From Alkalispirochaeta sp. (lineage in GTDB: Bacteria > Spirochaetota > Spirochaetia > DSM-27196 > Alkalispirochaetaceae): a DNA stretch of 19,595 bases. The DNA is taken from positions 1 through 19,595 of the forward strand of contig CBDESZ010000028.1 in the NCBI GenBank assembly GCA_965242725.1, given 5' to 3'. The notes beneath the pieces are model-generated. The model worked only from the letters and a program-made list of their open reading frames with translations, did not search any database and was not told the DNA's origin. Position 1 is the first letter of the stretch. The number at the start of each line of letters is the position of its first letter. Made by a program: the position numbers and the translations under genes. Of the stretch, positions 1,088-19,595 are shown piece after piece.

Positions 1088-1089
1088 TC

Positions 1090-1548
1090 TCAGCCTTTCT
1101 TCAGTCGCGCCGCCGATTTGTCGACGATGAGCTGGTAGATATTTCCGAAGGCGTTGGCCCGATTCGGCGTCAGCGTCGTTTTGAGATCAACCGCGTCTGC
1201 AAAACCCTCGATTGCGTCGCGGGAACCCGCGACGATATCCTCCGGGGTGAGATCGTTGAGGGCCTCAATCATGTAGGTCAACAGTCCGCGGACAACGTGA
1301 GCGTCCGATGAACCCCTGAAATGCATGACCCCTTCCCGGTACTCGTCCGCAATATACACATTACTGACGCATCCGTAGACAAAGTTTTCATCCACTCGTT
1401 CGTCGTCGGAGATCCCTTCCAGTTCCTTGCCTTTCTCGGTGATCGTGCGGTACATCTCCAGATTGTCGATCTCCCGCATCATGAGCAGTTCTTCAGTTAC
1501 TTCCTTGAGGTATCCTTTCATATCGTCAAGGGTCTTTCCTGTCGGCAT
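1090..1548 (-). CDS. sufE: SufE/CsdE-family sulfur acceptor protein
   Basis: VYGCVSNVYI (conserved Cys of the GC-x-S motif), FRGSSDAHVVRGLL and LTPNRANAF match SufE motifs. SD AGAGGAG lies upstream. Confidence 0.85.
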   Translation of the reverse strand: MPTGKTLDDMKGYLKEVTEELLMMREIDNLEMYRTITEKGKELEGISDDERVDENFVYGCVSNVYIADEYREGVMHFRGSSDAHVVRGLLTYMIEALNDLTPEDIVAGSRDAIEGFADAVDLKTTLTPNRANAFGNIYQLIVDKSAARLKKG

Positions 1549-1558
1549 AGTCGCTCCT

Positions 1559-3202: not shown

Positions 3203-3211
3203 AACACCTCG

Positions 3212-3240
3212 ACGGTACCGACATCGCGCCGAATTTACAA
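3212..3240 (-). promoter_or_regulatory. Putative sigma70 promoter of cysS
   Basis: TTGTAA (3240-3235), 17 nt, TACCGT (3217-3212), 9 nt, ATG. Confidence 0.45.
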
Positions 3241-3327
3241 GTCCGCGGGATGCGGCGCACCGGACCGGTCAGCTACCGGTGGGCAGGTACCTCAACGTAT
3301 CGTCGGGAATGGGCCGTGCCGCTGCCG

Positions 3328-3873
3328 TCACTCAGGATGGTCAAACCAGTCGTCTTCAAGGGAGCCGGCACCGAAAAAGTTGATACCGCTTATGGTGTCT
3401 TCCACCGGTTTTCCCAGATCACCGAGGACGATCTTGTGGCCCGGGCAGCCGAGGCGGGCGCATACTTCGATGCGATTCCTGCCGCCGGGTAGTCGGAACT
3501 CGATACCCCGATGAGAGGAGCACCCCTCCACGTCGCATTGGCGCTCAATCATGAGGCTTTCACCCGTCTCGGGAACCGACGCTTCCACCCACTGGTCGTC
3601 GTGACCGAGTTCCGGCAGAAAGCCGAAGAGTTTGGCGTGGCTGCCCCAGAAGGCGTCGACAAAGATGAGCCCTTCCGTGTTGCCGATCTTCGCCTTGAAA
3701 CGAATACTCGGCTCACCATGAATACGCACACTCTCCGTGATGAGGGATGCGCCGGACGGACTGCTTACCGCTTCCACCACGAGAAATTCCCGGCCGTGTC
3801 GTTTTACCAGCTTCATGCCTTCCGGAATGGCTCGGAGGAATTCCAGGGGAATCTCATTATGTACGAGTTTCAT
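3328..3873 (-). CDS. Hypothetical protein with a C-terminal Cys/His putative metal-binding cluster
   Basis: 181-aa ORF with a normal globular composition, containing CDVEGC and CARLGCPGH, preceded by a clean promoter. Confidence 0.8.
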   Translation of the reverse strand: MKLVHNEIPLEFLRAIPEGMKLVKRHGREFLVVEAVSSPSGASLITESVRIHGEPSIRFKAKIGNTEGLIFVDAFWGSHAKLFGFLPELGHDDQWVEASVPETGESLMIERQCDVEGCSSHRGIEFRLPGGRNRIEVCARLGCPGHKIVLGDLGKPVEDTISGINFFGAGSLEDDWFDHPE

Positions 3874-3879
3874 ACCGAC

Positions 3880-3908
3880 AGTGTACTATAGCCGCATGGA
3901 GGGTGCAA
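3880..3908 (-). promoter_or_regulatory. Sigma70 promoter, leaderless layout
   Basis: TTGCAC (3908-3903), 17 nt, TACACT (3885-3880), 6 nt, ATG at 3873. No SD. Confidence 0.65.
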
Positions 3909-3986
3909 TTCACGAATACTCATACGCCCCCTCCGGCCGGTGATGCGAGCGTCCCCGTGACGCGCCGTGTAAAAATGGAGTGGAAA

Positions 3987-4448
3987 ATGCGTTGTCCGAA
4001 ATGTGGGTCCCTGGAAGACCGGGTCATTGAATCTCGTGCCCTTGCGGACGGAAGAACGATTCGCAGGCGCCGTGAATGCCTTGCCTGTGAGTATCGATTT
4101 ACCTCATACGAGCGTATCGAGGAAAAACAGCTCATGGTGATCAAGAAGAGCAAAAACCGCCGGGAGCCCTTTGACCGGGAAAAACTCGAAAAGGGAATAC
4201 AGCAGGCGCTGCGCAAGCGGTCGGTGAGCCAGAGCCTCATCGCCACGATGATCGATGATCTTGAGGAACAGGCGATCCGTGAAGGTATGGAATCCCATGA
4301 AATTTCCGCCGCCCGGATCGGTGAGCTCGTCCTGGAGCGGCTCTACAACCTCGACCGGGTCGCGTACATTCGATTTGCGTCGGTATATCGAAACTTTGAG
4401 AACGTGGAAGAGTTCATTCGGGAAATCGAAGAGCTTACAAAACAATAA
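3987..4448 (+). CDS. nrdR: Transcriptional repressor NrdR
   Basis: MRCPKC...IRRRREC..C..RFTSYER zinc ribbon, an ATP cone, and LDRVAYIRFASVYRNF. The likely start is ATG at 3987 after GGAG; the track ORF is over-extended to 3747. Confidence 0.97.
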   Translation: MRCPKCGSLEDRVIESRALADGRTIRRRRECLACEYRFTSYERIEEKQLMVIKKSKNRREPFDREKLEKGIQQALRKRSVSQSLIATMIDDLEEQAIREGMESHEISAARIGELVLERLYNLDRVAYIRFASVYRNFENVEEFIREIEELTKQ

Positions 4449-4483
4449 AGACCCGACGGTATGACCGACGGGTCTTTATTGTT
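4441..4483. terminator. Bidirectional intrinsic terminator between convergent nrdR and tRNA
   Basis: Perfect 15-bp inverted repeat AACAATAAAGACCCG (4441-4455) / CGGGTCTTTATTGTT (4469-4483), extended inward by CGGT/ACCG after one mismatch. U-rich tails occur on both strands. Confidence 0.85.
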
Positions 4484-4485
4484 GA

Positions 4486-4558
4486 TAGTGGCGAAGGGAC
4501 TTGAACCCCTGACCGAGCGGATATGAGCCGCTTGCTCTACCGACTGAGCTACGCCACC
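4486..4558 (-). tRNA. tRNA with CAT anticodon, most likely elongator tRNA-Met
   Basis: GGTGGCGTAGCTCAGTCGGTAGAGCAAGCGGCTCATATCCGCTCGGTCAGGGGTTCAAGTCCCTTCGCCACTA folds as a cloverleaf with anticodon arm AGCGG-CTCATAT-CCGCT and T-loop TTCAAGT. It lacks the initiator C1:A72 mismatch and three consecutive G:C pairs, and has G4:C69/G5:C68 rather than the C4:G69/C5:G68 of E. coli Ile2. CCA is not encoded. Confidence 0.93.
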
Positions 4559-4574
4559 TCGTGAACGAGGCGAG

Positions 4575-4602
4575 AATATACCAGGTTTCAGGAGGTTGTC
4601 AA
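4575..4602 (-). promoter_or_regulatory. Strong sigma70 promoter of the tRNA gene
   Basis: Consensus TTGACA (4602-4597), 16 nt, TATATT (4580-4575) with extended TG and a GC-rich discriminator (CTCGCCTC), typical of stable-RNA promoters. Confidence 0.85.
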
Positions 4603-4614
4603 TCCGCCGCGTCC

Positions 4615-7416
4615 CTATACGAGGTTGTGGCGGCGCGCCGCCTCCATCATTTGCTTGTTCCACGCGTTTTGCCTGAGATACCTCAGTTTGTCCCGATACT
4701 CGTCCATTCTGCTCGTCCGTTCCTGTATCAGTTTCACCGACCGACCCAGAACGGTTGTCCGGTCGTCCCGGTCCCTGGAGCGCTCCTCCGGAAGGACGCT
4801 TGAATAGAGGAAGTTGTACAATCCCGTATAGGGATCAAGGTTGGACACATCGGCGCCGCGGGTGAGGGAGTAGAAGATCGGCACCGCCTCATCCTGCCGG
4901 TCAAGGTGGGCGAGGGTAAGGGCGTAGAATCCTTTGAGGATACGCAGCAGCTGCGAACTCCCCGGTGCGTTGGCTATCACGAGGTCTTCTATCGATGCGT
5001 ACCCGTTGTCCCAGGTGACGCCCAATCGCGGCCATCGGTCGGACATTTCTTCAAGAGTTATCGCCTCTTCAAGTAACGGGAGGGCTTCCGCATACCGGCC
5101 GTCGGCGGTGAGCGCTTCAGCGAGAAACAAGAGAACTTCCGGCCGTCGTTCCTCACCGGTGAGGGCATCTTCAACACGGCTGTCGTCACCATCCACCAGG
5201 TAGAGAGAGTACTCTCTCCACACCCGAAGCACCGAGAGCGGCGCGGAAATCGTACAGGAACTGCAAAAGTCGTACAGACGTGAAAACTGCTCCGCAGCGC
5301 GGGCATACTCGCCCAGCTCAAAATGTATTCGTCCCTGGAGAAAACGCAAAAGTACATACCAGTCGGAAAAACCCCGTTCCAGAAGGGGCCTGAGCTGTTT
5401 TTCCGCCGCCACCGCGGCGCGGCTGAGATTACCCACCAGAAACAGACGGATTGCATCAAGGGACCTGGCAACGAGGACCGATCCGTCGTCATCCTCCCGC
5501 TGGTCCATGGCGAATCCGAGATACTGGCCGGCATCGGAGAGTCGGCGCTGGGCGAACATGATCCGTGCCATCAGGAGGTAACTTGCCGCAACGGCACCGT
5601 CCGGCACGGCATCGCCCTGCTGGAGGAGAACCGCCCGTTTTACGCTTTTCAACGCCCCGGGGTAGTCCCGACGGGCAAGAAAGTACTCCGCCGTCGAGAG
5701 ATGAATATCCGCCTCCCCTCGCCCCTCATAGTACGGCAGCACCTCTTCAATGGTCTGAAACGCAGAGTCGCACTCCTCAGGTCCCCGGGAATCGCGCAAA
5801 TAGAGGCGCAGCTGAACCGATGCCGTCGCCAGCCTCTCGTCATCACGAAAGGTTTTTTCCGACGTGACAATGCGCTGACGATAGAAAGAGACATTTCCGC
5901 CCACGGCGATCCGGTGCAGATACCGATGAAAGAGCGCCGTTCTTGTGTCCCGGGGCAGGCGCTCCTGCACAAAATCCCACAGGTCCGGTGTGAGCGGTAT
6001 ACGTCCATTCTCAAGGAGATCCAGGAGAAAATCGTCGATCTCCCGGCGAAGTGCGAGCCCCTCGTCTCCGAAGATCCCGTCGATCACGGGTGAGACGAGA
6101 CGGTGTACCGTCGGGAAACCGGTATCCACGAGAAAACCCGTCCGAGTCAGGTCCTTAACGATGCGAATACGCTCTGCCCGGCTGATACCGGATCGTACAA
6201 AGAGCTCGTCCATCATCTCCGGAGACAACAGGGAGGAAACACAATGGAGGTAATAAAGGGTCGTTCTGTGTTTGCCGCCCAGTGATGCGGCGGCGACGTG
6301 GAGCACCCCTTCCGGCTCTGTATCCTCCCCGGGCAATCGTTCACCCCTTCCGTCCAGTTGCGCCCAATAACGGTATGCCCTCTCCCCTTTCCCGTCGGTA
6401 TGGACTGAAAGCACGCGCCAACGGTTTTCGGGGACGTCTTCACCCGAAAAAGGATGGCCGGAGGAAACGACTACGATCCGTGCCGCCGGAGATGAGGAAA
6501 GCAGGAGGGGAACGAGACCGTCTTCCTCATCGCCCTCCTCGATCACGATCGTGGCACTATATGAATCGGTTGCGTCCAACAACCGCTCCAGGGCGTAGCG
6601 CAGTTCACCCGTGAGGTATGGCGTCGAGAGGTGGTCGTGACCTGGAGCGCTGAACCGATTGACCAGAACTGCCGCAGGCGGGTCGAGGGATGCTTCTCGT
6701 TCATCGTGCAGAAATTCGGCGCAGACCTTCCAGAAGAGCTCCTGAAGCGTCCGTCGACCGTCCCGTTGACCGTCCCGGGGGCCGTCGGAAATTGTAAAGA
6801 CCGGTCCTACTGAAGCCGCGTGAATTGAAGCGGAAATGCGGGAAATGTCTGTGGTGACGATCCAGCATCGCCGGGGACCTTCCCGGTCGCCCGACGGGAA
6901 GAGGAGTTCCGATACGGCTCCCACCGTCTTGTCGTCGGCGAGAAAATCGACATATCGCCTGACCGCAGACCAGTATTCGTCACGAAAAGCGACGATCTGA
7001 TATATTTCTCCCGTTTGTACCAGCTCAACCACCGGTTCGAGGGCGAGTGCCACCGGTTCCGTCGCGTGGACCCCGTTTCGGATACGGACGTGGCGGAGCA
7101 GCCGCTCCATGGCCGGAAAGACCGTACCTGCCGCGACGTTCTCGCGATAGTCCGCCAGGACGATGTATTCCAGGAGATACTCCCCCTGTACCGAGAGGAG
7201 ACGGTCCGCCGTCTTAAGGAGGTCGGCGACCTCTTCGGGATGACGAACCTTCTGCTGCCGGTCCTGAAAGAACAGTAAATCGCGGTCCTGCGCGACGAGA
7301 TGAAACGCGCCCGCCTCCATTGCACCGGTGATTTCGGCGATGAATTCGCCGTACCACCGCTTTTCGAGACGGGACATCTGACTTATGCCGGCAGCTTCTA
7401 TCAGGAGATAGTACAT
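4615..7416 (-). CDS. Large TPR-containing protein, possibly a degenerate cyclase-STAND-TPR architecture
   Basis: 933-aa ORF. The C-terminal half has TPR-like helices (AEYFLARRDYPGALKSVKRA, GRIHFELGEYARAAEQF, AEALTADGRYAEALPLLEEA). Confidence 0.85.
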   Translation of the reverse strand: MYYLLIEAAGISQMSRLEKRWYGEFIAEITGAMEAGAFHLVAQDRDLLFFQDRQQKVRHPEEVADLLKTADRLLSVQGEYLLEYIVLADYRENVAAGTVFPAMERLLRHVRIRNGVHATEPVALALEPVVELVQTGEIYQIVAFRDEYWSAVRRYVDFLADDKTVGAVSELLFPSGDREGPRRCWIVTTDISRISASIHAASVGPVFTISDGPRDGQRDGRRTLQELFWKVCAEFLHDEREASLDPPAAVLVNRFSAPGHDHLSTPYLTGELRYALERLLDATDSYSATIVIEEGDEEDGLVPLLLSSSPAARIVVVSSGHPFSGEDVPENRWRVLSVHTDGKGERAYRYWAQLDGRGERLPGEDTEPEGVLHVAAASLGGKHRTTLYYLHCVSSLLSPEMMDELFVRSGISRAERIRIVKDLTRTGFLVDTGFPTVHRLVSPVIDGIFGDEGLALRREIDDFLLDLLENGRIPLTPDLWDFVQERLPRDTRTALFHRYLHRIAVGGNVSFYRQRIVTSEKTFRDDERLATASVQLRLYLRDSRGPEECDSAFQTIEEVLPYYEGRGEADIHLSTAEYFLARRDYPGALKSVKRAVLLQQGDAVPDGAVAASYLLMARIMFAQRRLSDAGQYLGFAMDQREDDDGSVLVARSLDAIRLFLVGNLSRAAVAAEKQLRPLLERGFSDWYVLLRFLQGRIHFELGEYARAAEQFSRLYDFCSSCTISAPLSVLRVWREYSLYLVDGDDSRVEDALTGEERRPEVLLFLAEALTADGRYAEALPLLEEAITLEEMSDRWPRLGVTWDNGYASIEDLVIANAPGSSQLLRILKGFYALTLAHLDRQDEAVPIFYSLTRGADVSNLDPYTGLYNFLYSSVLPEERSRDRDDRTTVLGRSVKLIQERTSRMDEYRDKLRYLRQNAWNKQMMEAARRHNLV

Positions 7417-7454
7417 CTCTTACTGTATCGGCCGCTCACAGTCCTTTTTTGAGA

Positions 7455-8147
7455 TTACCCGTCACCGGAAAGGGCCGAATACTCAAGATCCGACAAGGCC
7501 CCCCTCTCCACCGTCAGCCACACCCGCCACCATTGCCCGTCGGTACCGCGGAGAAGGAGACGCTCGCCCTCACCGGCGATACGGTACGCCTCGTCCACCT
7601 CTCCGATGGCGTCCCTCGCCTCGAGCAGGCGGGACTGAACAAAGTCGCCGTAGGAATCGTCGACGGGTACCGATTGAGCGTCGTCATCGACCGGTCCGAG
7701 AAAGTAGTCCGCCACGGATATGACCACCGGAGAAATACCGGACCGGGGAATCGCGGAGATCTCGTCGCCTGTCGGAGCGAAGCGTGGAGTCGTCGCGGAG
7801 GCCCCTCGTATCGCCCGGACCGCGTCCCTGAGCTCCTCGGGTATCTGCTCACCTCTGATCGTCGTCACCACCGGTTGTCCCCGTCGGCCGTTCTCCGTTG
7901 CAGGCGCCCCGGAAACACCGTCCCCGCCGTCCCTTGGAGGCAGTGTCGCCTCCCCTTCCGCGTCGGTAACGGCGGCCGCAGGCCGTTCCATCGTTTGCGG
8001 CTGCAGCGCCTCCCTCGGCACCTCCCGTTCCTCCTCGGGGGAACGGGCCGAACCGATGAACGCTCGTCCCACTGCAACGGCAAGGACCAGAACGATGAGA
8101 ACGATGATTACCGATATCCATCGCCTGAGAGGCGTAGAATCAACCAC
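7455..8147 (-). CDS. Hypothetical membrane-anchored/periplasmic protein
   Basis: N-terminal RRWISVIIVLIVLVLAVAVGRAF transmembrane helix, then an E/A/P-rich linker and a small C-terminal domain. I place the start at GTG 8147 because a promoter sits 6 nt upstream; the track start is 8171. Confidence 0.75.
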   Translation of the reverse strand: MVDSTPLRRWISVIIVLIVLVLAVAVGRAFIGSARSPEEEREVPREALQPQTMERPAAAVTDAEGEATLPPRDGGDGVSGAPATENGRRGQPVVTTIRGEQIPEELRDAVRAIRGASATTPRFAPTGDEISAIPRSGISPVVISVADYFLGPVDDDAQSVPVDDSYGDFVQSRLLEARDAIGEVDEAYRIAGEGERLLLRGTDGQWWRVWLTVERGALSDLEYSALSGDG

Positions 8148-8153
8148 ATGTGA

Positions 8154-8182
8154 ATGGTAGTATGCCCGCATTATCTGGGCAA
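8154..8182 (-). promoter_or_regulatory. Sigma70 promoter, leaderless layout
   Basis: TTGCCC (8182-8177), 17 nt, TACCAT (8159-8154), 6 nt, in-frame GTG. Confidence 0.55.
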
Positions 8183-8202
8183 GGAATGGAAGGGTGGATC
8201 AT

Positions 8203-9471
8203 ATGGATACGGGACGTGCAATTCGAGACCATCTGGAGACGGCATACACCGCTCCCATACGGGATCCCCTGTGGGGACACATGTACCTCTCACCGGCGAT
8301 GCTGCAGCTCGTGAATACACCCGAGTTTCAGCAACTCAGCCGAATCAAACAGCTTGGCCCCACCTTTCTCGTCTATCCGGGGGCGACCCACACCCGCCTC
8401 AACCACAGCCTTGGAGTCTTTCATCTCGCCCGCAGGATCATATCCCGCATCGTCTATCATCCCCAGTCGCCCCGTCTCTCCGTCGAGGGTGTGAAATCCT
8501 ATCTCGCCGCCGCACTGCTTCACGACGTCGGCCATTTCCCCTACACCCACAGCTTCAAGTCCCTCCCCCTGGCGGAACATGAACATCTCACCGGGCGGAT
8601 CGTCCAGACGGGGAAACTGAAGAAGCATCTCCGGGACGATCTGCAGGTGGATCCCCGCTACGTCGCCGCCATCGTTGACGAGACGATGGACGATGGAGGC
8701 GACGATGAGCTTCGACTCTATCGCAACCTGCTTTCGGGCAGTCTTGACCCGGACAAACTGGACTATCTCAACAGGGACGCCTATTTCTGCGGCGTGCCCT
8801 ATGGCTTCCAGGATATCGATTTCGCCATAAGCAGAATACGACCAAACGGTTATGAGGGAATCGGGCTGGAGGAGACGGGGGTTTCCGCGGTGGAAAACAT
8901 CCTCTTCTCGAAATTTCTCATGTACCGTGCCGTCTACTGGCACAGAACGGTGCGCGTCGCCACCGCAATGATTAAAAAGGCGGTTCATCTCGGGCTGGAG
9001 GAGGAGGTCATACGTCCCGACGACCTCTATGGTCTGGACGACGAACTTTTCATTGCGCGCTTCAGCGACCACCCCTTTGAACCTTTTCAGTTGATTGGTG
9101 AAGTCGGACAGCGCCGGCTGTTGAAGCCGGTTGCGACAATCTCCTTCGACCAGACCAACCCCGCCCACCATCAGTTGAGCGATATCTCAGCGCGACGGGC
9201 GGTGGAAGGCAGACTGGCCCGTCAGCTTGGCGTCCCGACCTATCGGGTAATCGTCGATATTCCCGATCCGATTTCATTTGAAGCCTATTTCCCGATATTC
9301 GAAGAGGAAAAACAGTACGAATTTTCCCAGAAGAGTGTCTTCTCCTCCGACGTGGTGCGGAGCTTCACCGAGACGTTGCGAAAAATCAGGCTCATGGTGC
9401 CCCGGGACACGGTCACCGACGACTTTGACGGTACCGCCCTTCTGGAGGAGTCCTTTCATGAACTGGGCTGA
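8203..9471 (+). CDS. HD-domain phosphohydrolase (COG1078 / SAMHD1-like dNTP triphosphohydrolase family)
   Basis: IRDPLWG, FQQLSRIKQLG, VYPGATHTRLNHSLG, ALLHDVGHFPYTH, LDPDKLDYLNRD and MYRAVYWH. The start is ATG 8203 or GTG 8194. Confidence 0.93.
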   Translation: MDTGRAIRDHLETAYTAPIRDPLWGHMYLSPAMLQLVNTPEFQQLSRIKQLGPTFLVYPGATHTRLNHSLGVFHLARRIISRIVYHPQSPRLSVEGVKSYLAAALLHDVGHFPYTHSFKSLPLAEHEHLTGRIVQTGKLKKHLRDDLQVDPRYVAAIVDETMDDGGDDELRLYRNLLSGSLDPDKLDYLNRDAYFCGVPYGFQDIDFAISRIRPNGYEGIGLEETGVSAVENILFSKFLMYRAVYWHRTVRVATAMIKKAVHLGLEEEVIRPDDLYGLDDELFIARFSDHPFEPFQLIGEVGQRRLLKPVATISFDQTNPAHHQLSDISARRAVEGRLARQLGVPTYRVIVDIPDPISFEAYFPIFEEEKQYEFSQKSVFSSDVVRSFTETLRKIRLMVPRDTVTDDFDGTALLEESFHELG

Positions 9472-10225
9472 GTTGATACAGACCCATCCTCCCCGCAGCG
9501 TCATGGGCTTCCTCAAACGGACGGGGCGCGGCATCAATCGGTACGGCATGATAGGTGACGGCGATCGGGTACTGCTCTCGGTATCCGGAGGCAAGGACTC
9601 CCTTGCAATGGCGCTGGCGTTGCGCATGCGTCTGCGCTTTGTACCCATTCACTACCATTTGGAAGCGGTTATGATCGACTGGCGGGAACATCCCCATACG
9701 CCGGCCTCCCTGGAGCGGATCCGGGCGTTTTTCAGACAGATCGAAATACCCCTCACAATCATTCCGGCCGACATGAAACCCGATTCCTTTCGCGGACGCT
9801 TTGACTGCTATCGATGCGGTCGCAATCGGCGGCGTATCCTCTTTGAGTACGTCAAGGATTGGGAAGGCCGCCCCCTCATTGCGACGGGACACCACCTGGA
9901 CGACGTCGTTCAGACGACGCTTATGAACATGGTTCTCTATGGGACCTTCGCCACGATGAATCCGGTACAGCCGTTTTTCAACGACTCCCTCCGGGTCATC
10001 CGCCCGCTCTGCGAAGTACGGGAAGATACGATCAGAACGGTGACGGAACGGTTTGAACTCCCCGTCTCTTCCATCGACTGTCCCTTCCGAACGGCCAACA
10101 TCCGCTCACGGGTCAATCCGATCGTCAGGGAGCTGGCGACGCTCCATCCCCAGGCGCGGGAACACATATTCCGCTCCCTTCACAATATTGATACCGAGTA
10201 TCTGCCGGCGAGTTGTGATCTCTAA
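9458..10225 (+). CDS. ttcA: TtcA-family tRNA 2-thiocytidine biosynthesis protein (PP-loop ATPase)
   Basis: SGGKDS PP-loop, CYRC, ATGHHLDD, IRPL and CP motif. Start at ATG 9458 after SD GGAGGAG, overlapping the end of the HD gene. Confidence 0.85.
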   Translation: MNWAELIQTHPPRSVMGFLKRTGRGINRYGMIGDGDRVLLSVSGGKDSLAMALALRMRLRFVPIHYHLEAVMIDWREHPHTPASLERIRAFFRQIEIPLTIIPADMKPDSFRGRFDCYRCGRNRRRILFEYVKDWEGRPLIATGHHLDDVVQTTLMNMVLYGTFATMNPVQPFFNDSLRVIRPLCEVREDTIRTVTERFELPVSSIDCPFRTANIRSRVNPIVRELATLHPQAREHIFRSLHNIDTEYLPASCDL

Positions 10226-10241
10226 AGGGATACTGTACACT
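10213..10241 (+). promoter_or_regulatory. Internal sigma70 promoter with a very short leader
   Basis: TTGTGA (10213-10218), 17 nt, TACACT (10236-10241), 9 nt, ATG 10251. No SD. Confidence 0.55.
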
Positions 10242-10250
10242 CGGAATTCA

Positions 10251-10709
10251 ATGAAGTCGAACCGACTAATGCAGGAGAGAATTCGTCGCGTCCACGTCCT
10301 GTTCCAGGAACTGGGATATGAACTGACGGAAAGTGAAACGACTGAAGAGAGCTACAGCGCCGGCTTTGTCGGTTCCGACGGCTTTCAGGCGGGCTTTTTC
10401 ATCGACGCAGATTCTAAATTCCTGGAGCTTGCCTTCACATTTACGTTCACCGCGGAGATGGCCAACTTCGTCCGGGAGCGCATTGAGGAAGGTATGCGCT
10501 CGCTGTACGAATTCGGATGTTATTTTTCTCTCCAGACGGACGAGCAGGATATCGTCCTCACCATTTTCAGTAAGATATACTTTGCAGGATTGAACTATTT
10601 TGCCCTGAAGGAAACGATTCGTGACTTTCGGGACGCGACAGAAGCGATACAGGATCTCTTTGATATACCGTTTGAGATCGAGAAGGGGGACGACGATGGA
10701 GATTCATAA
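10251..10709 (+). CDS. Hypothetical acidic protein, possibly YbjN / type III secretion chaperone-like fold
   Basis: 152 aa from ATG 10251, acidic, with a helix-strands-helix-strands-helix pattern. The fold call is inference only. Confidence 0.75.
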   Translation: MKSNRLMQERIRRVHVLFQELGYELTESETTEESYSAGFVGSDGFQAGFFIDADSKFLELAFTFTFTAEMANFVRERIEEGMRSLYEFGCYFSLQTDEQDIVLTIFSKIYFAGLNYFALKETIRDFRDATEAIQDLFDIPFEIEKGDDDGDS

Positions 10710-11379
10710 CGTCATGGAAGAGCTGGTGGCGTCCGTTGTGGAAGAAATCTCCCGGGACGACGCCGCGAGTGCCAAACCTCGGTACAGCGCCACCGAAGAG
10801 AGCCGGATGGACGCAATCTGCTATATACTCAACCGTACCACCCCCCGCTACGTCAGCTCCGGTCGCGGATTTGCCCATATTACAAATGAACTGCAGAACG
10901 ATCAGCAGCTGGGCGTCGATTTAATGCGCCTCGCTCACGAAGCGCTGCACCGGGTGAGCGCCGTTCGCCGCGATTTTTACAACGGCGGAAGCGCACCCCA
11001 CTCCGCGGGGCCGTGCTACAATTTTGGAACGATCAAGGGACGAATCCTCGACGGCGCGAGGTTTTCTCCGGTAAGCGGCGTGGCCGTGACGCTCATGCGC
11101 GACGGAACGGCTGTGGAAATGTTTGATACCCGCTGGTCAAATCCCTTTGAGATCCCCCCGCAGGCGCCGGGTACCTTCAATTTCTGGCCGGCACCCATCG
11201 CGGCATCCGACAACGCGGCGACGAAGGAGTTTCCCTTTGAACTGCGCGTGGAAGACCCGCGGTACGAACCGCTCAGCCACTTTTTCTCCGTGACTGCCCA
11301 CCGAGGCGAGCAGGAGACACGCACGATATCACTGGATCGCGATATCGTACTTCCCGACCTCTACCTCTTTACACGGTAG
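10696..11379 (+). CDS. ComFB-family protein with a C-terminal carboxypeptidase-regulatory/transthyretin-like beta domain
   Basis: MEIHNVMEELV and RMDAICYILNRTTPRYVSS match the ComFB signature (N.ME..V...D...ALN.lpP.Y). The tail GTIKGRILDG...PVSGVAVTL matches the beta-sandwich start. SD AAGGGGG. Confidence 0.85.
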   Translation: MEIHNVMEELVASVVEEISRDDAASAKPRYSATEESRMDAICYILNRTTPRYVSSGRGFAHITNELQNDQQLGVDLMRLAHEALHRVSAVRRDFYNGGSAPHSAGPCYNFGTIKGRILDGARFSPVSGVAVTLMRDGTAVEMFDTRWSNPFEIPPQAPGTFNFWPAPIAASDNAATKEFPFELRVEDPRYEPLSHFFSVTAHRGEQETRTISLDRDIVLPDLYLFTR

Positions 11380-11400
11380 GTTGACGACCCGCGGAGCCCT

Positions 11401-11691
11401 TCACTCATAGGACTCCGAGTGGGTCTGAACCTCCTGCACCCTTCCGGGGACGATGGTTTCAATGAACTCCAGGATCCGCTGAATCACCCGCTCGCCGTAT
11501 TGGCGGTTATTGCTGACCACGGCGACGCCGAGCTGACTGAAGGAGAGACTTTCCTCCAGATCCACCTCCGCCACGCTGACGCGGAATTTTCGATTCACCC
11601 TGTCCCGAACGCTGTGAACAATTCTCCGCTTGTCCTTGATGGAGGTCAGATCGGGAATTTCAATTATCACCAGGAGCATGGAGACGATCAT
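11401..11691 (-). CDS. DUF503 (YlxP-like) family protein
   Basis: SIKDKRRIVHSVRDRVNRKFRVSVAEVD...LGVAVVSN is the DUF503 signature. Confidence 0.9.
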   Translation of the reverse strand: MIVSMLLVIIEIPDLTSIKDKRRIVHSVRDRVNRKFRVSVAEVDLEESLSFSQLGVAVVSNNRQYGERVIQRILEFIETIVPGRVQEVQTHSESYE

Positions 11692-11697
11692 GGGAGA

Positions 11698-12825
11698 TCA
11701 CTCTTCGTCGAATAGACTGGATATATCGGCGACGGAGAGGGCGCTCCCGCTTTCGTTCTCCTGTGATGCACCTTCACGGTCCTTCATGGGCAGGAACACG
11801 CTGTTGTACTTCTCCGCTAGCCGGTAAATGTCGTCGTCCCGATAGCGGTCGGGAATGACAACTTCAAGTGAATAGGCGCCTTCACTCATGCCCCGACGCA
11901 TGACGTGTATGGGATCGGTGACGGTCAGGGCAAAGTGGGGGCTGTATATCACCATAAAGACGATTACAAGCGCGAGAATGACCGCAAAGTACTGCAGGTT
12001 ACGTCGTGCCTCTTCCTGTTGCACAGGACGAAGATCGAGGAACAGCCTCAGATTGTCCCTTTCGGCATAGGTGTAATCCTGGGAGGTGAAATAGCGATCC
12101 AGGTATCCCTGATCGTACCGGCTGTAGAGAACGTTCCCTCCCGCCTCGACGGAGATGATTTCCCGACGACTCTGGGCGTACGCTTTCAGGGACGCAATGC
12201 GATCGGGAGCGGCCAGCTCCTCGGCAAGGATATAATCAAGCGATTCCGAAGCGGTTTCCCGGTAGGCAAGTTCAAACGTTGGTACCGTCACAAACATACC
12301 CGCCACTGACAGGATAATGAGGGTAAAGACAATCGTCGTCACCGCGCTGGCGGTAATGAAGGCGACGTGGCGCTGGGCCATCTGGGAGTCGGTGTTCTTT
12401 ATCTTTTTGAAGATCTTCAGGACGCGAAGCAGTCTCAGCACCCGGGTAATCCTGATCGCCTTGACCACCTTGAGGACGTTGAGCATACCCCCGACACCAC
12501 CGACGGGAACGCCGCCGGCGAGAAGGGCGAGAAGGCGGGGTCCGCTGTTCAGCATCACCAGGGGGATGCTGGCGAGAAAATCAATCCATCCCCGTTCGTT
12601 CCAGAAATATCGGGAAAACTGACCGCGCCGGGACGCGTCGTAGCTGCGGACGGCAAACTCAATTGTAAAAAAGAGATCGAATGCAAATCCGGTGATCGTC
12701 AGTATCGTCCGCAGATCGCCGTTCCAGGACAGGAGTATGGCGAGATCCTCCAGGAACGTCTGAACGAGGACGAGGACGATTGCGACAATCACGATACCTT
12801 CCAGGAATGAACGAGTTTTACCCAT
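11698..12825 (-). CDS. Ion_trans-like voltage-sensor domain membrane protein with an extracytoplasmic domain and a C-terminal HAMP-like region
   Basis: S2 FDLFFTIEFAVR, S3 WIDFLASIP, S4 KVVKAIRITRVLRLLRVLKIFKKIK, two more TM helices, then TDPIHVMRRGM...DDIYRLAEKYN. Confidence 0.85.
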   Translation of the reverse strand: MGKTRSFLEGIVIVAIVLVLVQTFLEDLAILLSWNGDLRTILTITGFAFDLFFTIEFAVRSYDASRRGQFSRYFWNERGWIDFLASIPLVMLNSGPRLLALLAGGVPVGGVGGMLNVLKVVKAIRITRVLRLLRVLKIFKKIKNTDSQMAQRHVAFITASAVTTIVFTLIILSVAGMFVTVPTFELAYRETASESLDYILAEELAAPDRIASLKAYAQSRREIISVEAGGNVLYSRYDQGYLDRYFTSQDYTYAERDNLRLFLDLRPVQQEEARRNLQYFAVILALVIVFMVIYSPHFALTVTDPIHVMRRGMSEGAYSLEVVIPDRYRDDDIYRLAEKYNSVFLPMKDREGASQENESGSALSVADISSLFDEE

Positions 12826-12831
12826 AATTAC

Positions 12832-13755
12832 CTACCAGACATTTTCCGCAGCGATCTTGTACAGCTCATCGAGCATTTTCACGTCAAATCCGTAAAATTT
12901 GTAGTTCCGGCGTGCCGTAGAAAGCCAGCTCTTGTCGGGGCTGTCCGCGCCCCGGTCCACCTTGAGATTGGCTTGATAGTTCCGCCCCCGGGCGGCCAGT
13001 ATCGCCGCGAGACGGGCCGTCGCTTCTATATAGGGATTCTCGTTGAAGGAAACGCTTCCGTGAACGACGCTCTTCAATACCCCTTCAGGGACCGGTTTCA
13101 GTTCCCGCTGCAGCCGTTCAAGAATCTTTTCCGCAAACTGGTTTTGCACCATGCCGCTCGTCCGGTCCGGGTGGGCATTGCCGCCGCCGAGAAAGAGTAC
13201 AGCCGGCTTCAGAAGGAGGTTGAGATTCACGAAATTCACGACCTCGTCCTTTCCCATACGGAGGCGTTGGACTTTGGTCAATTCAAAATGGATATACGTC
13301 TTGCGGTAGAATACTTCGTCGAGGTAGCGATCGACCATGCCGGAAACGACGGCAGTATAGGGACCGGTAAAGGCGCGACGGGCTTCCGGTTTTTCAAGAA
13401 GACGCTCGATGAAGGCGTAAACCAGTTTTCCGACCTTCTGGACGTCCACACCCTGGTCCTCGATGAGATGGAAAAACGTGTAATTCAGTTTTTCCGTGGT
13501 AAGTCTTTGAATATCCGGGTAGAGACGGGTGTTGATCACGTTGTACAACTGATTCACCAGGAGCGCAAAGATCTGGTTCCAGTTTTTTCCCGGAAAGAAC
13601 TGGCGTGAACTGAGCGTCGGGGCCAGTTGCGCGGCGTTACCGTGCAGAAATTGAATGATCTGTTCTTCCTGCTGGAGGAGGGAGAAGCCATTGAGTGCGG
13701 GATTCTGCAGGAGTCGGCTGATAAAGGCCTGTGCTTTCTGGCTTTCGGTGTTCAT
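12832..13755 (-). CDS. Conserved-looking hypothetical helical protein (307 aa)
   Basis: Long clean ORF lying 6 nt upstream of the next gene. ATG at 13755 follows a promoter. Confidence 0.85.
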   Translation of the reverse strand: MNTESQKAQAFISRLLQNPALNGFSLLQQEEQIIQFLHGNAAQLAPTLSSRQFFPGKNWNQIFALLVNQLYNVINTRLYPDIQRLTTEKLNYTFFHLIEDQGVDVQKVGKLVYAFIERLLEKPEARRAFTGPYTAVVSGMVDRYLDEVFYRKTYIHFELTKVQRLRMGKDEVVNFVNLNLLLKPAVLFLGGGNAHPDRTSGMVQNQFAEKILERLQRELKPVPEGVLKSVVHGSVSFNENPYIEATARLAAILAARGRNYQANLKVDRGADSPDKSWLSTARRNYKFYGFDVKMLDELYKIAAENVW

Positions 13756-13806: not shown

Positions 13807-16800
13807 ATGGGGAGAGATCATCGGCACCTGTTCCATTTGATCATCGCGGTGATCTTCATCATCCCATCCGTCCCGGCTGCCGGGGAGAGCTGGGAACCCG
13901 AACGCTCGCTCATTGAGGAGGAGGCACCGCCCTACCTGCTTGACCTCTCTCTGGGCGGGAACGATGCGGAGCTTTTTCTCTCAGGCCTCTGGAACGCCTC
14001 GTCTGAGGTGGCATTGGGCATGGCCCTGCACCCGCCCCTTCCGGAGACGGGGCGTCGCGTCACCTTCGGCAGGAGATATCCCGGATTCGAAACAAACTTC
14101 TTCGCCCAGACCGTGGATCTCACCCTCTCACTGTGGCTCTATGAGCGGTACTTTTTTGAGGCGACCTTTGCCGACGATTCACGGCTCAACTCCATCGCCG
14201 CCGGTTACTACGCCGCGGAAGATGAGCTGGTCAGGGAGTTTGTCGTCGGGAACGTACCTCTTGCGGTCTCCCGGTATCCCTACCAGTACACGGGGAACCG
14301 TGCCAACCGTGCAGGTGCGACGCCAAATCCCGGTTCCCTGCTGCGCCTTGAAACGGGGTCCACTTTTCATGAGTTTCTCATTCAACTGGAAAATACAATG
14401 GAACGTCGCCTGCGCATTTCCGGAGGGCGTATCGTTGAAGAGGCGGTGATCCCGCCGGAGCAGTACCTCCGCGGCCTCTCCTTCGTACTCCCCGACGGCG
14501 GTGTTTCCCGGCTGACCGTCTTTCTCCAGGACCCGGACGGCCAGGTGCTCGGCCGTCTTCCCGGAGACGGCTCTCTGCGTCGCTTCCGCGTTCTCGACGA
14601 CGGCGCAGGGGAGTACGTCGCCGATCTTGACGCCGGGACGGTCCGCCTGGGCGACACAGTTCCGGGAAACCGTACCGTCGCCGTCTATTACGAGACGGCC
14701 TCGGGAGCGGTCGGTCAGGCAGGAAACGGCGCGGGAGGTATCGTCGCCCTCGATCCCCTCACGGCGGCGCCGACCGATCAGACGACGGATTTTGCGTTCG
14801 GAACGGACCCGCTTTACAACCTGACCGAAACGGCCGCCGACTATGAGGGAAACGACTTCCGCCTCCAGCTGACCGACGGCCGGAATGCCCTCATCATACG
14901 CTCCCCGGGACTCTGGTCTCCCTTTGAGGCGGCGGACCTGTACCGCCTCCCGGCGGGAGCGGATGAGACGGGACGGTACCGCCTCGTTCGGCGCGATACG
15001 CTTACGCCATATGAGAGCGACATTCAATTGAGTCGCCGGCCCGAGACGTCCATCCTCAGGGCCCGTCGTCCCGGGACGTCCCCCCGGGACCCGGACTACC
15101 GCTATCCCTGGGCGGCGGAAACACCCCGGGATCTCCATTCCCGCATGTACGGCCCCAGAAGTGCCGGATTATCGCGATTCAGCAACAGCGGAATCTACGT
15201 GGAATACGGAACGGCGGTGGGAACGATACAGCTCGACGGAGACGTTGTTCCGGGTTCCGTCGCGGTCCGGTCGGGCGGCGTCGCCGTCGCCGGGGCAGAC
15301 GTAGACTACGACGGATCGACCGTTTCCCTGCCACCCTCCGCGGGGGCGGGGAATGTGGACATCGTCTATCGCGTATATGGTGATGACGGCACGGGAGGCG
15401 ATATCATTGTCATCAACGGAAACCGATGGACACTGCGACCGGATCTCACCCTCTCCGCCGCCGCCGGAATCAGGTGGAACGTCACCGATGACGGCTACTC
15501 CACGGAAATGAATCAACACCCCGGGCAGATAACCCTCTCATCGGGAGTATCGTGGAGGGGCGACAATCTTCAGGTCGAGGCGTCCGGCGCGGCCCAGTTG
15601 TCACAAAGCGACACGACCGGATTCTTTCGCCTCTTCGGGGGCACATCCAGGGACTCGGTGCTCGCCCCGTCGGCGGAGACGGTGTTCCCGCCGGGGGCGG
15701 CGGAAATCCTTTCGACCCGGGACGTCGACTATGGAGGCCCGGACCTTGCAGCATCGGCCTTTGTCTATCCCCGCTACCGCGATTACTGGTCGACGGACCT
15801 CCTCGGAAACGTTGCGCTCGGGGAATATACCTCTTCAGTCGAGGCCGATACCGACCGCGCCAACGGACGCATCGGCCCCTACATCGCCCGCAGCAGCGAT
15901 ACCGGCTATCGCGGCACCGTCGCCGTTCTGGAGTGGGACGCCCTTCCCTCGGATCGGTGGACGGGAATACACATAAACCGGAACGCTCCGGAGCAGGATC
16001 TCCGGGACGCCCGATCCATTCTCGTCACCTGGCGGTACATTCCCGATACTCCCGGCGCCCCCACGCCGGAAATTCTCCTGGAGATGGGAGCCCTCGGTGA
16101 GGACCTTGACGGCGACGGAAGGCTCGACCGGGGCAGAAGCGCGGTGGACCCGTTGATAGAGTACAACGGTGCCGACGGCGTGCGGCGGGCGGGTCAGGAC
16201 GCGCCGATACTGCAGCGCAGTCACAGCGAGGATACGAACGGCAACAACGTTCTCGATACCGAGACCCCGTCGGCAGTCTTCTCCTATGTGCTTCAAGCCT
16301 ATCAGCCCGCCACCACCGAGGGGTGGCAGAGTGTGGAAATCTCCCTGGACGCGCTTGACCATACGGGCGCGCCCTCCGGTGCGGTAGCCCGCAGCCGCCT
16401 CGCCGCCGTCCGCGCGGCCCGCATCGTCGCCGCCGCGCCGACGGGTCAAAGCATACCGTCCGGACGCCTCCTCGTCGGCGAGATACGGGTACGCCGCACG
16501 GGAGCCGTCACCGTCACCGAGGCGGGAGACAATGACTCGGGCAGCGCCGGCATCGTTCCTGACCCGCTCTCCGGTACGGAAGCCCTTCGCAACCGCTTTC
16601 ATCCGGTTGGCGATCGCTTCGTCCCCGACGGCGAGGATCAGCGCGTCGCGGCACTCTCGTGGAGGGGAGGCGCCGCTTCGGTCGCCGCGGAAGTGTCCAC
16701 CCCTGACCTCTCGATAAACGAATACGCCACGGCGACAACCTACCTGTTTCTCGACGCCCCGGTCTCCGAGGGCGGACCGGAAAAGGTCGCCCTCCGTATC

Positions 16801-18887
16801 GCCCCCTATCGGAACGCTCCCGGAGAGAAATCGATCATTGCCGAAATACCTGCGACGACGCTCCTGGACCGGTGGCATGAATTACCCTGAATCTTCAGGA
16901 CCGGGAGCTCCGCATAGACGGTGACCGCATTTCCGGTGCCACCGTTACCGTCGGGAGCCGGGCGGACCGGGAGCTCATGCGGGTCGCATCGCTGTCGGTG
17001 GAAGAGATCGGCGGTACCACGACGGGCACCCTCTACTTTGATGAGCTTCACGCCGCCGATGCACGAAGCGGCGTCTCCGGCGCCGGAAGGATCTATGCCG
17101 CGTGGTCCCGGACGGTCACGGAGGGGACCTTTGCGGGGACACGACTCTACGTCTCACAGTCCGTCGCCGCCCAGGGAGCCGATTTCCGCCTCGCCGGGAG
17201 TGCCGCCGGCGGAACCACCGGCGGCGGTGACGCATCCGACGACGTATCAAACGGCGACGACGGTGGCGACTACAGCAGCGCCGGTGCCGGCACAGGCACG
17301 TCCGGCACCGCGGATTTCAGTTCCGGCGCCGGCGGCCCCTCCCTTCCGACGGCGTCCGGCGTCGTAGCGACGGATACGAGGGCGGGTCTCACGGCCGGAC
17401 CGTTTCACCTCGAGGGACGTGTCGTTACCCGGGGGAGGGATGACGAAGGTTCCGCCGGATACGGACACGAAGTAGCGATCCCCCTCCTGCCGGGAGGGGC
17501 CGTCACGCTCCGGGAGAGCTTCTTCCGGGACTACCGCTACGGCAGCACCGGCTATTCCCGGCAGGTGGGCGTACAATCGGCGAGGGAGGGCTGGGGCACC
17601 TACCAGGTCTCGGCGTCCCATAATGTGTCGGAACGGGAAACACAGCAGGCGTGGCGCGTGGACCTCGCCCCGCCGTCGATTGCAGCCCTCCGCCTTCAAC
17701 TCCGCAACGACATTTCCCTCTTCGCACCGGACCTGACCGTCTCCTCCCTCCCCTACGGCTCGAGCTGGCGGGAGAGTACTGACTACCTCCTCCCCGTCCC
17801 GGAACGACTCAGCGCCCAGGAACGGCGCCTTGAAAGCGGCATATCCCTGGACATTGCCGCCCTGGAACTCACCGGAGACGGCGGCTGGACAAATCGCAGC
17901 TCCCTCTCGGGCGAGCACGAAAGCCGCCTCGCCCTCGGAATCTCCCTCCCCCTCTCATTCGAGCCCGCCGGCCGCCGGCCGTGGAAACTGACGCCGTCAT
18001 ACAGCCGTTCCTATCTTTTTATAGAAGAACTTCGTTCCGCCGGGTTTGCAGACGATGGTGCCGCGTGGGCCAACCGCATCGCAGGGGAACCGGGGATGGT
18101 TACGGCGCTGCCCATAGCGGAACTCTTTCAGACGCTCCCGTCGCCCGAATTTGACGCCCCCCTGCCCGGGGGAGAGCGCAGAAGCTATGACGCCGAGGGG
18201 TCACTTGAGTTTTCCCGGGTCTTTACGTCCCGCATCAGCGATCTCTGGATCCCCTCCGCCGCCCGTCTCGACGTGGAACGCTCACTTGCCTGGGAGGGGG
18301 ACAGTATAGAGGACTCACGGACGTGGCGAATGGAGGCGACGGCGACGGCGGTCAATCTCTTCGGCCGGGAAGGTGCCTACCCGCGTGCACTTCTGTATGC
18401 AAGCGATGAATTCCGGAACAGCGTGACCGCCAAAATCACTGAACGACCTCGCAGCGACGGGAAACCGGCGTGGTCGGTCGGCGCATCCCAGGGTACCTCC
18501 ATGTACGGAGCAGGCGAGAACCGACTTGACTCCCTTCTCGGGGTTACCGCGTCCCGTGACAGCTTCTGGACCGTTGAGTATTACGGCGAAGTGACCTACC
18601 GGTGGATCGATCGCAGGTATCCACCGTTGAACGTGCTTGAGCGGCTGGAAGAGACGCCCTATTACCGCCATGAGGAACGGACGGCCTTCACCGTTACCAC
18701 GGAAGATGGAACGTTCAAGTTGGGCGAGGTAACGGCGGGACACCGGACGGAACTGATCATCACCAGACAGGGGTCAATCTCCCTCTTCGGCGACCTGGGG
18801 TGGACGATGGACGCCGGAGAGTATGAAAATGGGGCGCTCCACCTCATTGGACTGCGTATCGGAGTGGAAGGGCGATTGAGCTATTGA
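13807..18887 (+). CDS. Very large outer-membrane beta-barrel protein (~1693 aa) with SprA/Sov-like motifs; one-base frameshift near 16880
   Basis: Signal peptide from ATG 13807 (MGRDHRHLFHLIIAVIFIIPSVPAA), many amphipathic beta strands, and a C-terminal beta-signal LRIGVEGRLSY. Adding one A at 16880-16881 joins ORFs 13627..16890 and 16977..18887 as WHEITLNLQDRELRIDG...ELMRVASL. Confidence 0.8.
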
Positions 18888-18965: not shown

Positions 18966-18971
18966 CCTGTG

Positions 18972-19595
18972 ATGCACAGAAATTGGGTTCTCGTTCACGC
19001 GATGATTATTTCCGCCCTCTTCATAACGGGGGGAGGCGGCGATTTATACGGACAGGACGGAGATAGCCCGCCGGAATCACCGATCACATTCCGCCTCGGG
19101 GTGACCTTCGGCGTAAACTCCTTCGTCGACGAGGAGAGCGGCGACATCGATACCTACCAACTCCTTTCCCTCCGGCCCGATATTGCCTACGGGAAGGTGG
19201 GAGTCGGACTTGACCTGCCGATAAACTACCGTTTCACCGCAGGTGACGGCAGCGACTTTGAAGTACGCCGGGAAGACTGGATACCCGACTCGGACAGAAC
19301 CTTCGCCGAGGTATATCTCCCCAAATTCCGCTACGTGCGGTACGGAGAAGACGGCGACCCGCTGTATCTCCGTTTCGGAGGGCTTGCCTCCACGACCCTC
19401 GGCAACGGGTTCATTATGAACGGCTACTCCAATGAGCTCTACGCGCCTCAGCGCCGCGTCTTCGGAGGAGTTGTAGAGATTGACGGTGACGCATTCGGCG
19501 TGCCCTACGTCGGTCTGGAAACAATGACCGCCAACATGGCCACGTGGGATGTGATGGGAGGACGGTTGTATCTCCGGCCCCTCGTCTCCACCGCG
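18972..19595 (+). CDS. Secreted / probable outer-membrane beta-barrel protein, 5' part; runs off the window edge
   Basis: Not in the ORF track. Open frame from ATG 18972 to the end: MHRNWVLVHAMIISALFITGG...FRLGVTFGVNSF...YQLLSLRPDIAYGKVGVGLDLPINYRF...PKFRYVRYGEDGDPLYLRFGGLASTTLGNGFIMNGYSN. It has a signal peptide and alternating-pattern strands. Confidence 0.85.
   Translation, partial: MHRNWVLVHAMIISALFITGGGGDLYGQDGDSPPESPITFRLGVTFGVNSFVDEESGDIDTYQLLSLRPDIAYGKVGVGLDLPINYRFTAGDGSDFEVRREDWIPDSDRTFAEVYLPKFRYVRYGEDGDPLYLRFGGLASTTLGNGFIMNGYSNELYAPQRRVFGGVVEIDGDAFGVPYVGLETMTANMATWDVMGGRLYLRPLVSTA

Follow-up and report, generated by a model that had tools for sequence, protein, structure and literature searches.

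A divergent SprA-like barrel in spirochaetes, with a PorV-like carrier and one giant tagged protein as probable partners

Introduction

The type 9 system of protein secretion (T9SS) combines the translocon SprA (Sov in Porphyromonas gingivalis), a protein of ~2,400 residues, with the carrier PorV, cargo bearing a C-terminal domain (CTD), the motor GldLM, the ring GldKN, and PorU/PorP. Bacteroidota carry many tagged cargos per genome, and their SprB-type giant adhesins are very large, repeat-rich surface proteins with a C-terminal secretion tag. According to the available parts of PMC10994853, SprA of Flavobacterium johnsoniae (structures 6H3I, 6H3J, 8GL6 and 8GL8) is a 36-strand barrel with an outer cap and a lateral opening bound by PorV. 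Here we analyse a gene for an SprA-like outer-membrane protein of ~1,690 residues on a 19,595-nucleotide stretch of Alkalispirochaeta sp. DNA (the window), which is the entire contig C28 of a genome assembly of 4.34 Mb in 34 contigs, 92% complete.

Concerning distribution, a 2016 survey found the T9SS in Bacteroidetes only (PMC4793230) and a 2024 paper reported its genes to be absent from phyla outside the Fibrobacteres, Chlorobi and Bacteroidetes (FCB) group (PMC11285876), both according to the portions of these papers at hand. The literature searched, which included few subscription journals and no supplements, where such matches could sit, held no description of SprA in spirochaetes. Proteins of the UPF0164 type have been discussed in this phylum. 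Those of Treponema pallidum were modelled as FadL transporters, with no mention of PorV in the accessible sections of the article (PMC8407342), and T. pallidum proteins appear as 'PorV/FadL-like' in a supplementary legend of PMC13749626, whose accessible sections mention neither SprA nor the T9SS. A Brachyspira preprint (10.1101/2025.01.03.631275), in its available text, contains one PorV/PorQ-annotated protein, read as FadL-like.

We estimate at roughly 70% the probability that the gene in the window encodes a distant, shortened SprA homologue, a closed barrel of ~36 strands that exports one giant tagged protein with a PorV-like carrier, apparently without GldLM. What is new here is the linkage of the spirochaete SprA-like barrel to a cargo and to a carrier.

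Results

Homology of the barrel protein to SprA

The model TIGR04189 was matched by only one of the 26 close members of the window family (E 0.006). The family is bridged to SprA by longer spirochaete forms of 1,730-2,290 residues from other classes. Our family profile A1 aligned with these longer forms at an hhalign probability of 100 (E 4.6e-64, 991 columns), TIGR04189 was matched by 7/13 and 6/8 of them (E 4e-13 to 4e-51), and profiles built from them retrieved a single molecule from the PDB, F. johnsoniae SprA (6H3I; E 7.8e-32 and 1.9e-42). A more direct comparison used profile A4, whose first row is the N-terminal part of the window protein, with the annotated SprA of Parabacteroides distasonis as the target. 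The score was 42.3 bits, spread over four collinear blocks; of 51 controls, reversed or shuffled, none scored above -0.5. In the ESM Atlas the N-terminal part fell among SprA_N clusters at 0.95; the C-terminal part was assigned to SprA_N at 0.88, which we treat as a lead only. TamB, LptD and Omp85 were absent from the families matched by the two halves, by the 26 A1 members and by another 19.

The original prediction, made from the letters of the window, had described a divergent, shortened SprA-like protein carrying SprA/Sov motif blocks in collinear order, and both statements were borne out. All of the motifs lie where they had been placed: RRFRVLDD (14578), FEAADLYRL (14923), IQLDGDVVPGSV (15226), LLEMGALGEDLDGDG (16075), EDTNGNNVLDTE (16228), GWQSVEISL (16321) and AVRAARI (16405). 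Through the bridging profile their order is kept in SprA, with EDELVREFVVGNVPL corresponding to EDEIIKSLEAGNVSM, LLEMGALGEDLDGDG to YFNLGEISEDILKDE and EDTNGNNVLDTE to EDINGDNTLNE. The collinear homology extends over approximately SprA 130-1530 by way of the bridging forms, and the two proteins share a signal peptide and a terminal aromatic residue; the predicted number of strands is ~36 here, against 36 in SprA. Judged by these comparisons, the ~1,690-residue gene product is a true but distant homologue of SprA/Sov. SprA_N was also found in Elusimicrobiota and Gemmatimonadota clusters of the ESM Atlas, so that SprA outside Bacteroidota is already present in databases.

Host and distribution of the family

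The closest named relatives of the host are Alkalispirochaeta and uncultured Spirochaeta contigs, and the family is present in the genomes of relatives. This agrees with the proposed spirochaetal host; we rejected an origin of the contig from the FCB group, its relatives being Spirochaetota. A search with the N-terminal part matched 28 other proteins and 40 of the 41 genomes of the relatives set, the source genome included, and the family comprises 1,113 clusters at 50% identity; the gene is therefore not a chance open frame. With the N-terminal profile A2 the barrel was detected in 144/301 Spirochaetota genomes and 87/121 genera. A2 did not find it in families f15 (0/7), f16 (0/2) and f27 (0/61) or in genome G128, and it occurred in 1/34 genomes of family f32; a second profile, A3, agreed in each case. 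In a tree of 45 rows, five of them almost unaligned and with one outgroup, the base was not resolved and the families mostly clustered together.

Named members are all annotated as hypothetical and include Treponema denticola WP_253699949.1 (1,137 residues) and Gracilinema caldarium WP_013968944.1. The window family and the T. denticola form align collinearly (hhalign probability 100, E 8.8e-40), the latter being without ~500 middle residues.

A giant tagged protein as candidate cargo

Contig C25 of the source genome (63001-81669) holds a single giant gene of ~6,000 codons, read in three frames, whose product ends in one tag domain of ~100 residues. In its conserved form this candidate cargo is a signal-peptide protein of 1,300-7,500 residues, rich in G, T, A, S, N and D, with a single tag domain at the extreme C-terminus. 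A signal-peptide-like start was seen in all 15 full-length relatives (1,329-5,685 residues). Conservation within the cargo is highest in the tag, which is always terminal and has a near-invariant lysine near its end; PF18962 did not match it. Databases name the relatives FlgD Ig-like, haemagglutinin-repeat or autotransporter-repeat proteins. The cargo resembles SprB-type adhesins in its great length, its low-complexity, repeat-rich composition and its C-terminal tag, a likeness of general description; it differs from them in that the tag is type-A-like and FlgD-like and in that no gliding motor accompanies it.

Each of 38 of the 39 tag-positive genomes in our sample of the class Spirochaetia has exactly one tagged protein, the remaining genome having a second, short match. 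In other classes of the phylum, genomes G044, G059, G072, G083 and G092 encode 10-14 tagged proteins together with 4-7 PorV-like genes, a multi-cargo version of the same system. A conserved lipoprotein-like gene of ~370-480 residues, to which no family could be assigned, faces the cargo gene tail to tail in the order of the host (L131:9699-10790; L139-L154, L168, L170), but most Treponema loci showed none. The T. denticola cargo gene has L167:3-1688 nearby, which we take to be a Cas9-like N-terminus.

Five further proteins of the source genome are Lsa66-like, combining tandem FlgD/CHU_C-like repeats with an OmpA domain at the C-terminus (G000:C15:74541-79391, C18:321852-325946, C23, C25:241757-244411 and C27). 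These five were considered as cargo and rejected, as their repeat domains are internal and the family is found in 13/24 barrel-negative genomes. In a relative (G018:C10) the N-terminus of one copy matched the PorV family weakly, recalling the fused PorP-tag-PorE arrangement.

Co-occurrence of barrel and tag

Among the 63 genomes of the class sample, 39 had the barrel and the same 39 had the tag; the other 24 had neither. The weakest matches on which these counts depend had E values of 1e-20 and 3e-31. The agreement holds within groups, with both present in 28/40 genomes of family f12, 11/18 of genus g24, 1/2 each of g20 and g29, and 2/4 of f18. As a control we used the Lsa66-like OmpA family with its similar Ig repeats, which was present in 51/62 genomes. 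It was retained in the 13 barrel-negative genomes mentioned above, and the barrel-tag pattern is thus not one of general gene loss. Across the phylum, searched at E 1e-6 with a tag profile built from one order, all 97 tag-positive genomes among the 301 were also barrel-positive.

Since the barrel and the tagged protein occur in exactly the same genomes of the class, export of the giant protein is likely. The possibility raised in the original prediction, that of an undescribed spirochaetal export system, gains support from this co-occurrence, from which we infer export. Its further statement that no other T9SS gene is recognisable stands for the window; it does not extend to the genome, where the tagged protein and a PorV-like gene lie elsewhere.

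A PorV-like carrier

At position 360137 of contig C18 we found a single gene of the PorV/PorQ family, which matched UPF0164 at 165 bits. NF033709 was matched in all 41 genomes of the relatives set and exceeded its cut-off in two. A 30-member profile of the carrier had one significant match in the PDB, PorV (E 4.6e-4), and none to FadL. The carrier was present in all 39 barrel-positive class genomes and, in addition, in G128, G200, G243 and G330; as it is kept in these four without a barrel match, its function may lie elsewhere. With profile A6 no match was obtained in G128, G200, G243, G330 or G324, in a search that had no positive control. G128, with five UPF0164 copies, gave neither a barrel nor a tag match. 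In other classes, among the 37 carrier and 90 tag matches listed, 12 of the carriers begin 86-367 bases downstream of a same-strand tag (8/19 genomes).

The carrier shares its Pfam family (UPF0164, PF03687), an NPA motif and a C-terminal helical extension with T. pallidum TP0548, TP0856, TP0858, TP0859 and TP0865. Whereas those proteins have been published as lipid or small-molecule transporters, as the accessible sections of PMC8407342 have it, the carrier described here tracks an SprA homologue and matches PorV.

In the source genome the PorV-like gene is divergent from genes for a 1,001-residue helical protein and a BNR/HAMP/SpoIIE sensor (L137:2204-11247, G000:C18). A helical protein of ~1,000 residues also adjoins the UPF0164 cluster in G128, where it is presumably TP0855. 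As a guess, we name this protein a candidate periplasmic partner, and no more than a candidate for one of the T9SS subunits SprE, SkpA, PPI and Plug.

Predicted anatomy of the barrel

Strands were predicted from 175 aligned members (effective number 148) by a heuristic procedure in which they were chosen by eye from peaks. Amphipathic segments occur in three stretches of ~8, 4 and 24-25, a total of 36-37, with two soluble insertions between them (Table 1). In a coevolution analysis 20 of the 37 segments paired best with a sequence neighbour, and adjacent pairs scored 1.55 vs 0.95 for others. Pairing also linked the end of segment 1 to the beginning of segment 2, over the first insertion. The first-ranked of 630 non-adjacent pairs joins an N-terminal strand (window ~13987-14016) to the last strand; its score was 2.70, the 95% null maximum being 2.52. 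Coevolution thus suggests that the three segments join across the two inserted domains and close into one barrel of ~36 strands.

Table 1. Positions of the SprA-like gene, its predicted parts and its nearest neighbours in the window
Feature	Position	Strand	Basis or remark
Divergent gene for a conserved hypothetical protein of 308 residues, a fixed neighbour in the order	12832..13755	-	no family match
SprA-like gene, N-terminal reading frame, 1,027 residues	13807..16890	+	ATG 13807, stop 16888-16890
Signal-peptide-like N-terminus (basic, hydrophobic, small-residue end)	13807..13881	+	read by eye as a Sec signal peptide
Predicted barrel segment 1, ~8 amphipathic strands	13957..14412	+	holds the best SprA match (SprA 225-324)
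Inserted soluble domains I (RRFRVL, FEAADLY and VVPGSV blocks), putative part of the cap	14413..15387	+	P. distasonis SprA ~300-700
Predicted barrel segment 2, ~4 strands	15388..15615	+	linked by coevolution to the end of segment 1, beyond the insertion
Inserted soluble domains II (EDLDGDG, EDTNGN, GWQSV and AVRAARI blocks)	15616..17060	+	SprA ~830-1430; missing in the T. denticola form
One-base frame break, putative assembly error	16876..16884	+	comparison with an intact homologue
SprA-like gene, C-terminal reading frame, 668 residues, final residue aromatic	16881..18887	+	stop 18885-18887
Predicted barrel segment 3, ~24-25 amphipathic strands; Gly/Ser-rich loop near 17190-17370	17085..18884	+	strand pattern, coevolution
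Predicted outer-membrane protein of ~480 residues, start only, cut by the contig end	18969..19595	+	conserved downstream neighbour in the order

Components of the T9SS that were not found

We searched for the remaining components of the T9SS. In the source genome there was no match to GldM (one weak match in 70 genomes) or to the PorU sortase (peptidase C25; 7/70 genomes), GldN gave E 0.08 only, and GldL gave weak, partial matches in frames of 600-1,000 residues, none of five over the cut-off. GldK was matched in its C-terminal half only, at no more than 93 bits against a cut-off of 350, and likewise in controls without a T9SS. PorP/SprF (TIGR03519) gave no match, the control being blank as well. 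For none of these models did a control genome exceed the cut-off. Among the longer open frames listed around the barrel, cargo and carrier genes we recognised no motor-like gene. Taking into account the behaviour of the controls, and that the barrel itself escapes TIGR04189 in the source genome, not found cannot be equated with absent.

The locus set shares with the T9SS a translocon homologue, a PorV-like barrel and a tagged cargo with a signal peptide. It differs in the six components GldM, GldL, GldN, GldK, PorP and the C25 peptidase, none of which was found in the source genome, and in having a single cargo in nearly every class genome where Bacteroidota have many. As motor, ring and sortase were not found, we do not file it as a T9SS; it is likely to be a variant of the type 9 translocon that has no motor and serves a single cargo.

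Reading frames and the frame break

The two reading frames of the barrel gene join into a protein of ~1,690 residues that ends in ...GRLSY (window 13807-18887). A signal-peptide protein with this length and end had been predicted, and the joined frames agree with it, the N-terminus by eye and the end by its conservation: the last residue is F, Y or W in 111/123 full-length family members, and likewise in 115/115 and 25/25 members of two other subgroups. The closest homologue, P0002, is intact and 60% identical to the N-terminal part, with no gap across the frame break, and its residues 1066-1717 are 48% identical to the C-terminal part. Because the N-terminal match ends and the C-terminal match starts at P0002 residue 1066, there is one frame break, near 16880. 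Relatives keep the gene as a single frame of 1,565-1,760 residues. Of 27 genes of the source assembly that were tested, two showed a frame change, and one of these is the barrel gene; the genes for the cargo, OmpA and sensor proteins are also split into overlapping frames. We consider the break to be probably an assembly error; gene decay in the source strain may be another reading. A scan for promoters and terminators gave no result beyond chance.

Neighbouring genes

The ~480-residue protein downstream and a FecR-domain barrel that follows were considered as core partners and rejected, as they are present in just 10/62 class genomes. The two downstream genes are paralogues, the C-terminal region of the FecR-domain protein being homologous to the ~480-residue protein (window 18969-19595; G000:C31:151721-152719; L032:11335-15049). 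Both lie upstream of mutL, and no family could be assigned to their shared region. On the other side of the barrel gene, an Ion_trans-like membrane protein (window 11698-12825, minus strand; E 6.7e-12) is a fixed divergent neighbour across the order. The region 479-11691 is occupied by housekeeping and other genes: a metallophosphoesterase, SufE, CysRS, NrdR, tRNA-Met(CAT) at 4486-4558, a 933-residue TPR protein, an HD protein, a PP-loop protein, a ComFB-like protein and DUF503.

We also inspected four Treponemataceae loci (L089:4564-10641, L104:9097-15045, L088:4779-9373 and L101:8784-14686). In two of them DNA polymerase IV (DinB) and the SprA-like gene form one open frame; in the other two DinB lies directly upstream. 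A gene of ~650 residues upstream in Treponema loci looks by eye like a multi-helix membrane protein and has a marginal match in the source genome.

Discussion

By analogy with F. johnsoniae, the cargo would cross the inner membrane by Sec, and its tag would enter the SprA-like barrel from the periplasm and bind loops of the carrier. The cargo may then leave the barrel sideways together with the carrier and stay on the surface as an adhesin-like filament. In F. johnsoniae energy, or a motor, is needed to extract substrates, as stated in the available parts of PMC10994853. Here the energy could come from folding of the cargo outside the cell or from an unrecognised motor, which is a guess.

Several observations weigh against this view. 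With regard to the barrel, the window halves alone matched nothing in Pfam, NCBIfam or the PDB, profile A1 had no PDB match, and the last 500 residues (segment 3) had no significant match to the SprA C-terminus. No family member tested reached the TIGR04189 cut-off of 200 (best 173.7 bits), and for this reason we do not file the protein as a member of that family; from SprA/Sov it differs in this respect, in its shorter length, in a C-terminal barrel segment that cannot be aligned and in a host outside the FCB group. In the coevolution analysis 17 of the 37 segments paired best with a non-neighbour, 1 of 200 null runs reached 3.10, the junction of segments 2 and 3 was weak, and one top pair, 223-1623, is unexplained. 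The carrier scored 83.7 bits on NF033709, below the cut-off of 90, and persists in four class genomes where the barrel was not found. The cargo tag, at 23.2 bits on TIGR04183 (cut-off 23) in one search, reached 18.6 in another, and its neighbours in the PDB are flagellar FlgD domains, with no solved T9SS tag among them. Outside the class co-occurrence is looser, with the barrel in about 150 genomes and the tag in 97; in family f34 all three genomes (3/3) have the barrel and none (0/3) a tag or carrier match. The genomes counted are related and not independent, and the counts were made without a species tree. Finally, the barrel and cargo genes are both frame-broken in the source assembly.

In one alternative the barrel alone exports or anchors the giant protein, and the UPF0164 barrel belongs to a separate module with its neighbours or is a lipid transporter. 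In the source genome the carrier gene is unlinked to the barrel and cargo genes, it shares one distribution with the helical protein (42/62 genomes, including the four barrel-negative ones), and its T. pallidum counterparts have been modelled as FadL transporters (PMC8407342, accessible sections). Nevertheless, we regard a separate carrier module as unlikely, considering that the carrier is kept in every barrel-positive class genome, that its profile finds PorV and not FadL in the PDB, and that, among the matches listed, 8 of 19 genomes from other classes have the tag and carrier genes as a pair. In another alternative there is a full type 9 system whose motor and ring are too divergent for the GldK, GldL, GldM and GldN models; substrate extraction requires energy (PMC10994853, available parts). 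Models made for Bacteroidota can indeed miss true homologues, as the barrel is invisible to TIGR04189 in the source genome, and the motor searches put no control over the cut-off. Such a hidden motor appears quite improbable to us, given that GldM had its one weak match in 70 genomes that include some with the barrel above 100 bits on TIGR04189, that GldL matches were weak and confined to parts of long frames, and that the longer open frames listed around the three genes include nothing motor-like.

A descendant of SprA that no longer secretes, serving as a large pore or assembly scaffold, with the shared distribution marking a dispensable surface module, would be in line with the low identity to SprA, the failure to find a motor, the loss of ~500 inserted-domain residues in T. 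denticola and a tag that resembles the FlgD Ig domains common in these genomes. Against this stand the absence of any discordant genome among the 63, while other FlgD-like repeat proteins do not track the barrel, and a tag that is the best conserved part of the cargo, invariably terminal and marked by its lysine; we therefore consider a non-secreting descendant very improbable. We prefer the reading in which the barrel exports the giant protein together with the PorV-like carrier.

A broader proposal, which we put forward tentatively as possible rather than probable, is that spirochaetes possess a motor-less, type 9-like line of one barrel, one carrier and one giant protein, gained and lost together. 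In this proposal the 1,137-residue T. denticola protein would be a near-minimal translocon, and the 'FadL-like' vaccine antigens of the syphilis spirochaete would be leftover carriers, which suggests another origin for the FadL-like outer-membrane antigens of T. pallidum.

If export by the barrel and carrier is correct, about half of the sampled Spirochaetota would have an unrecognised route by which a giant protein reaches the surface. The phylum, which includes the gum-disease bacterium T. denticola, is one of those from which the T9SS has been reported absent. For this periodontal organism both a candidate surface adhesin and the protein that would export it can now be named. Two questions would become testable in cultured organisms: how an SprA-type pore functions in the absence of GldLM, and how much of SprA can be dispensed with, an entire inserted region being missing from T. 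denticola WP_253699949.1.

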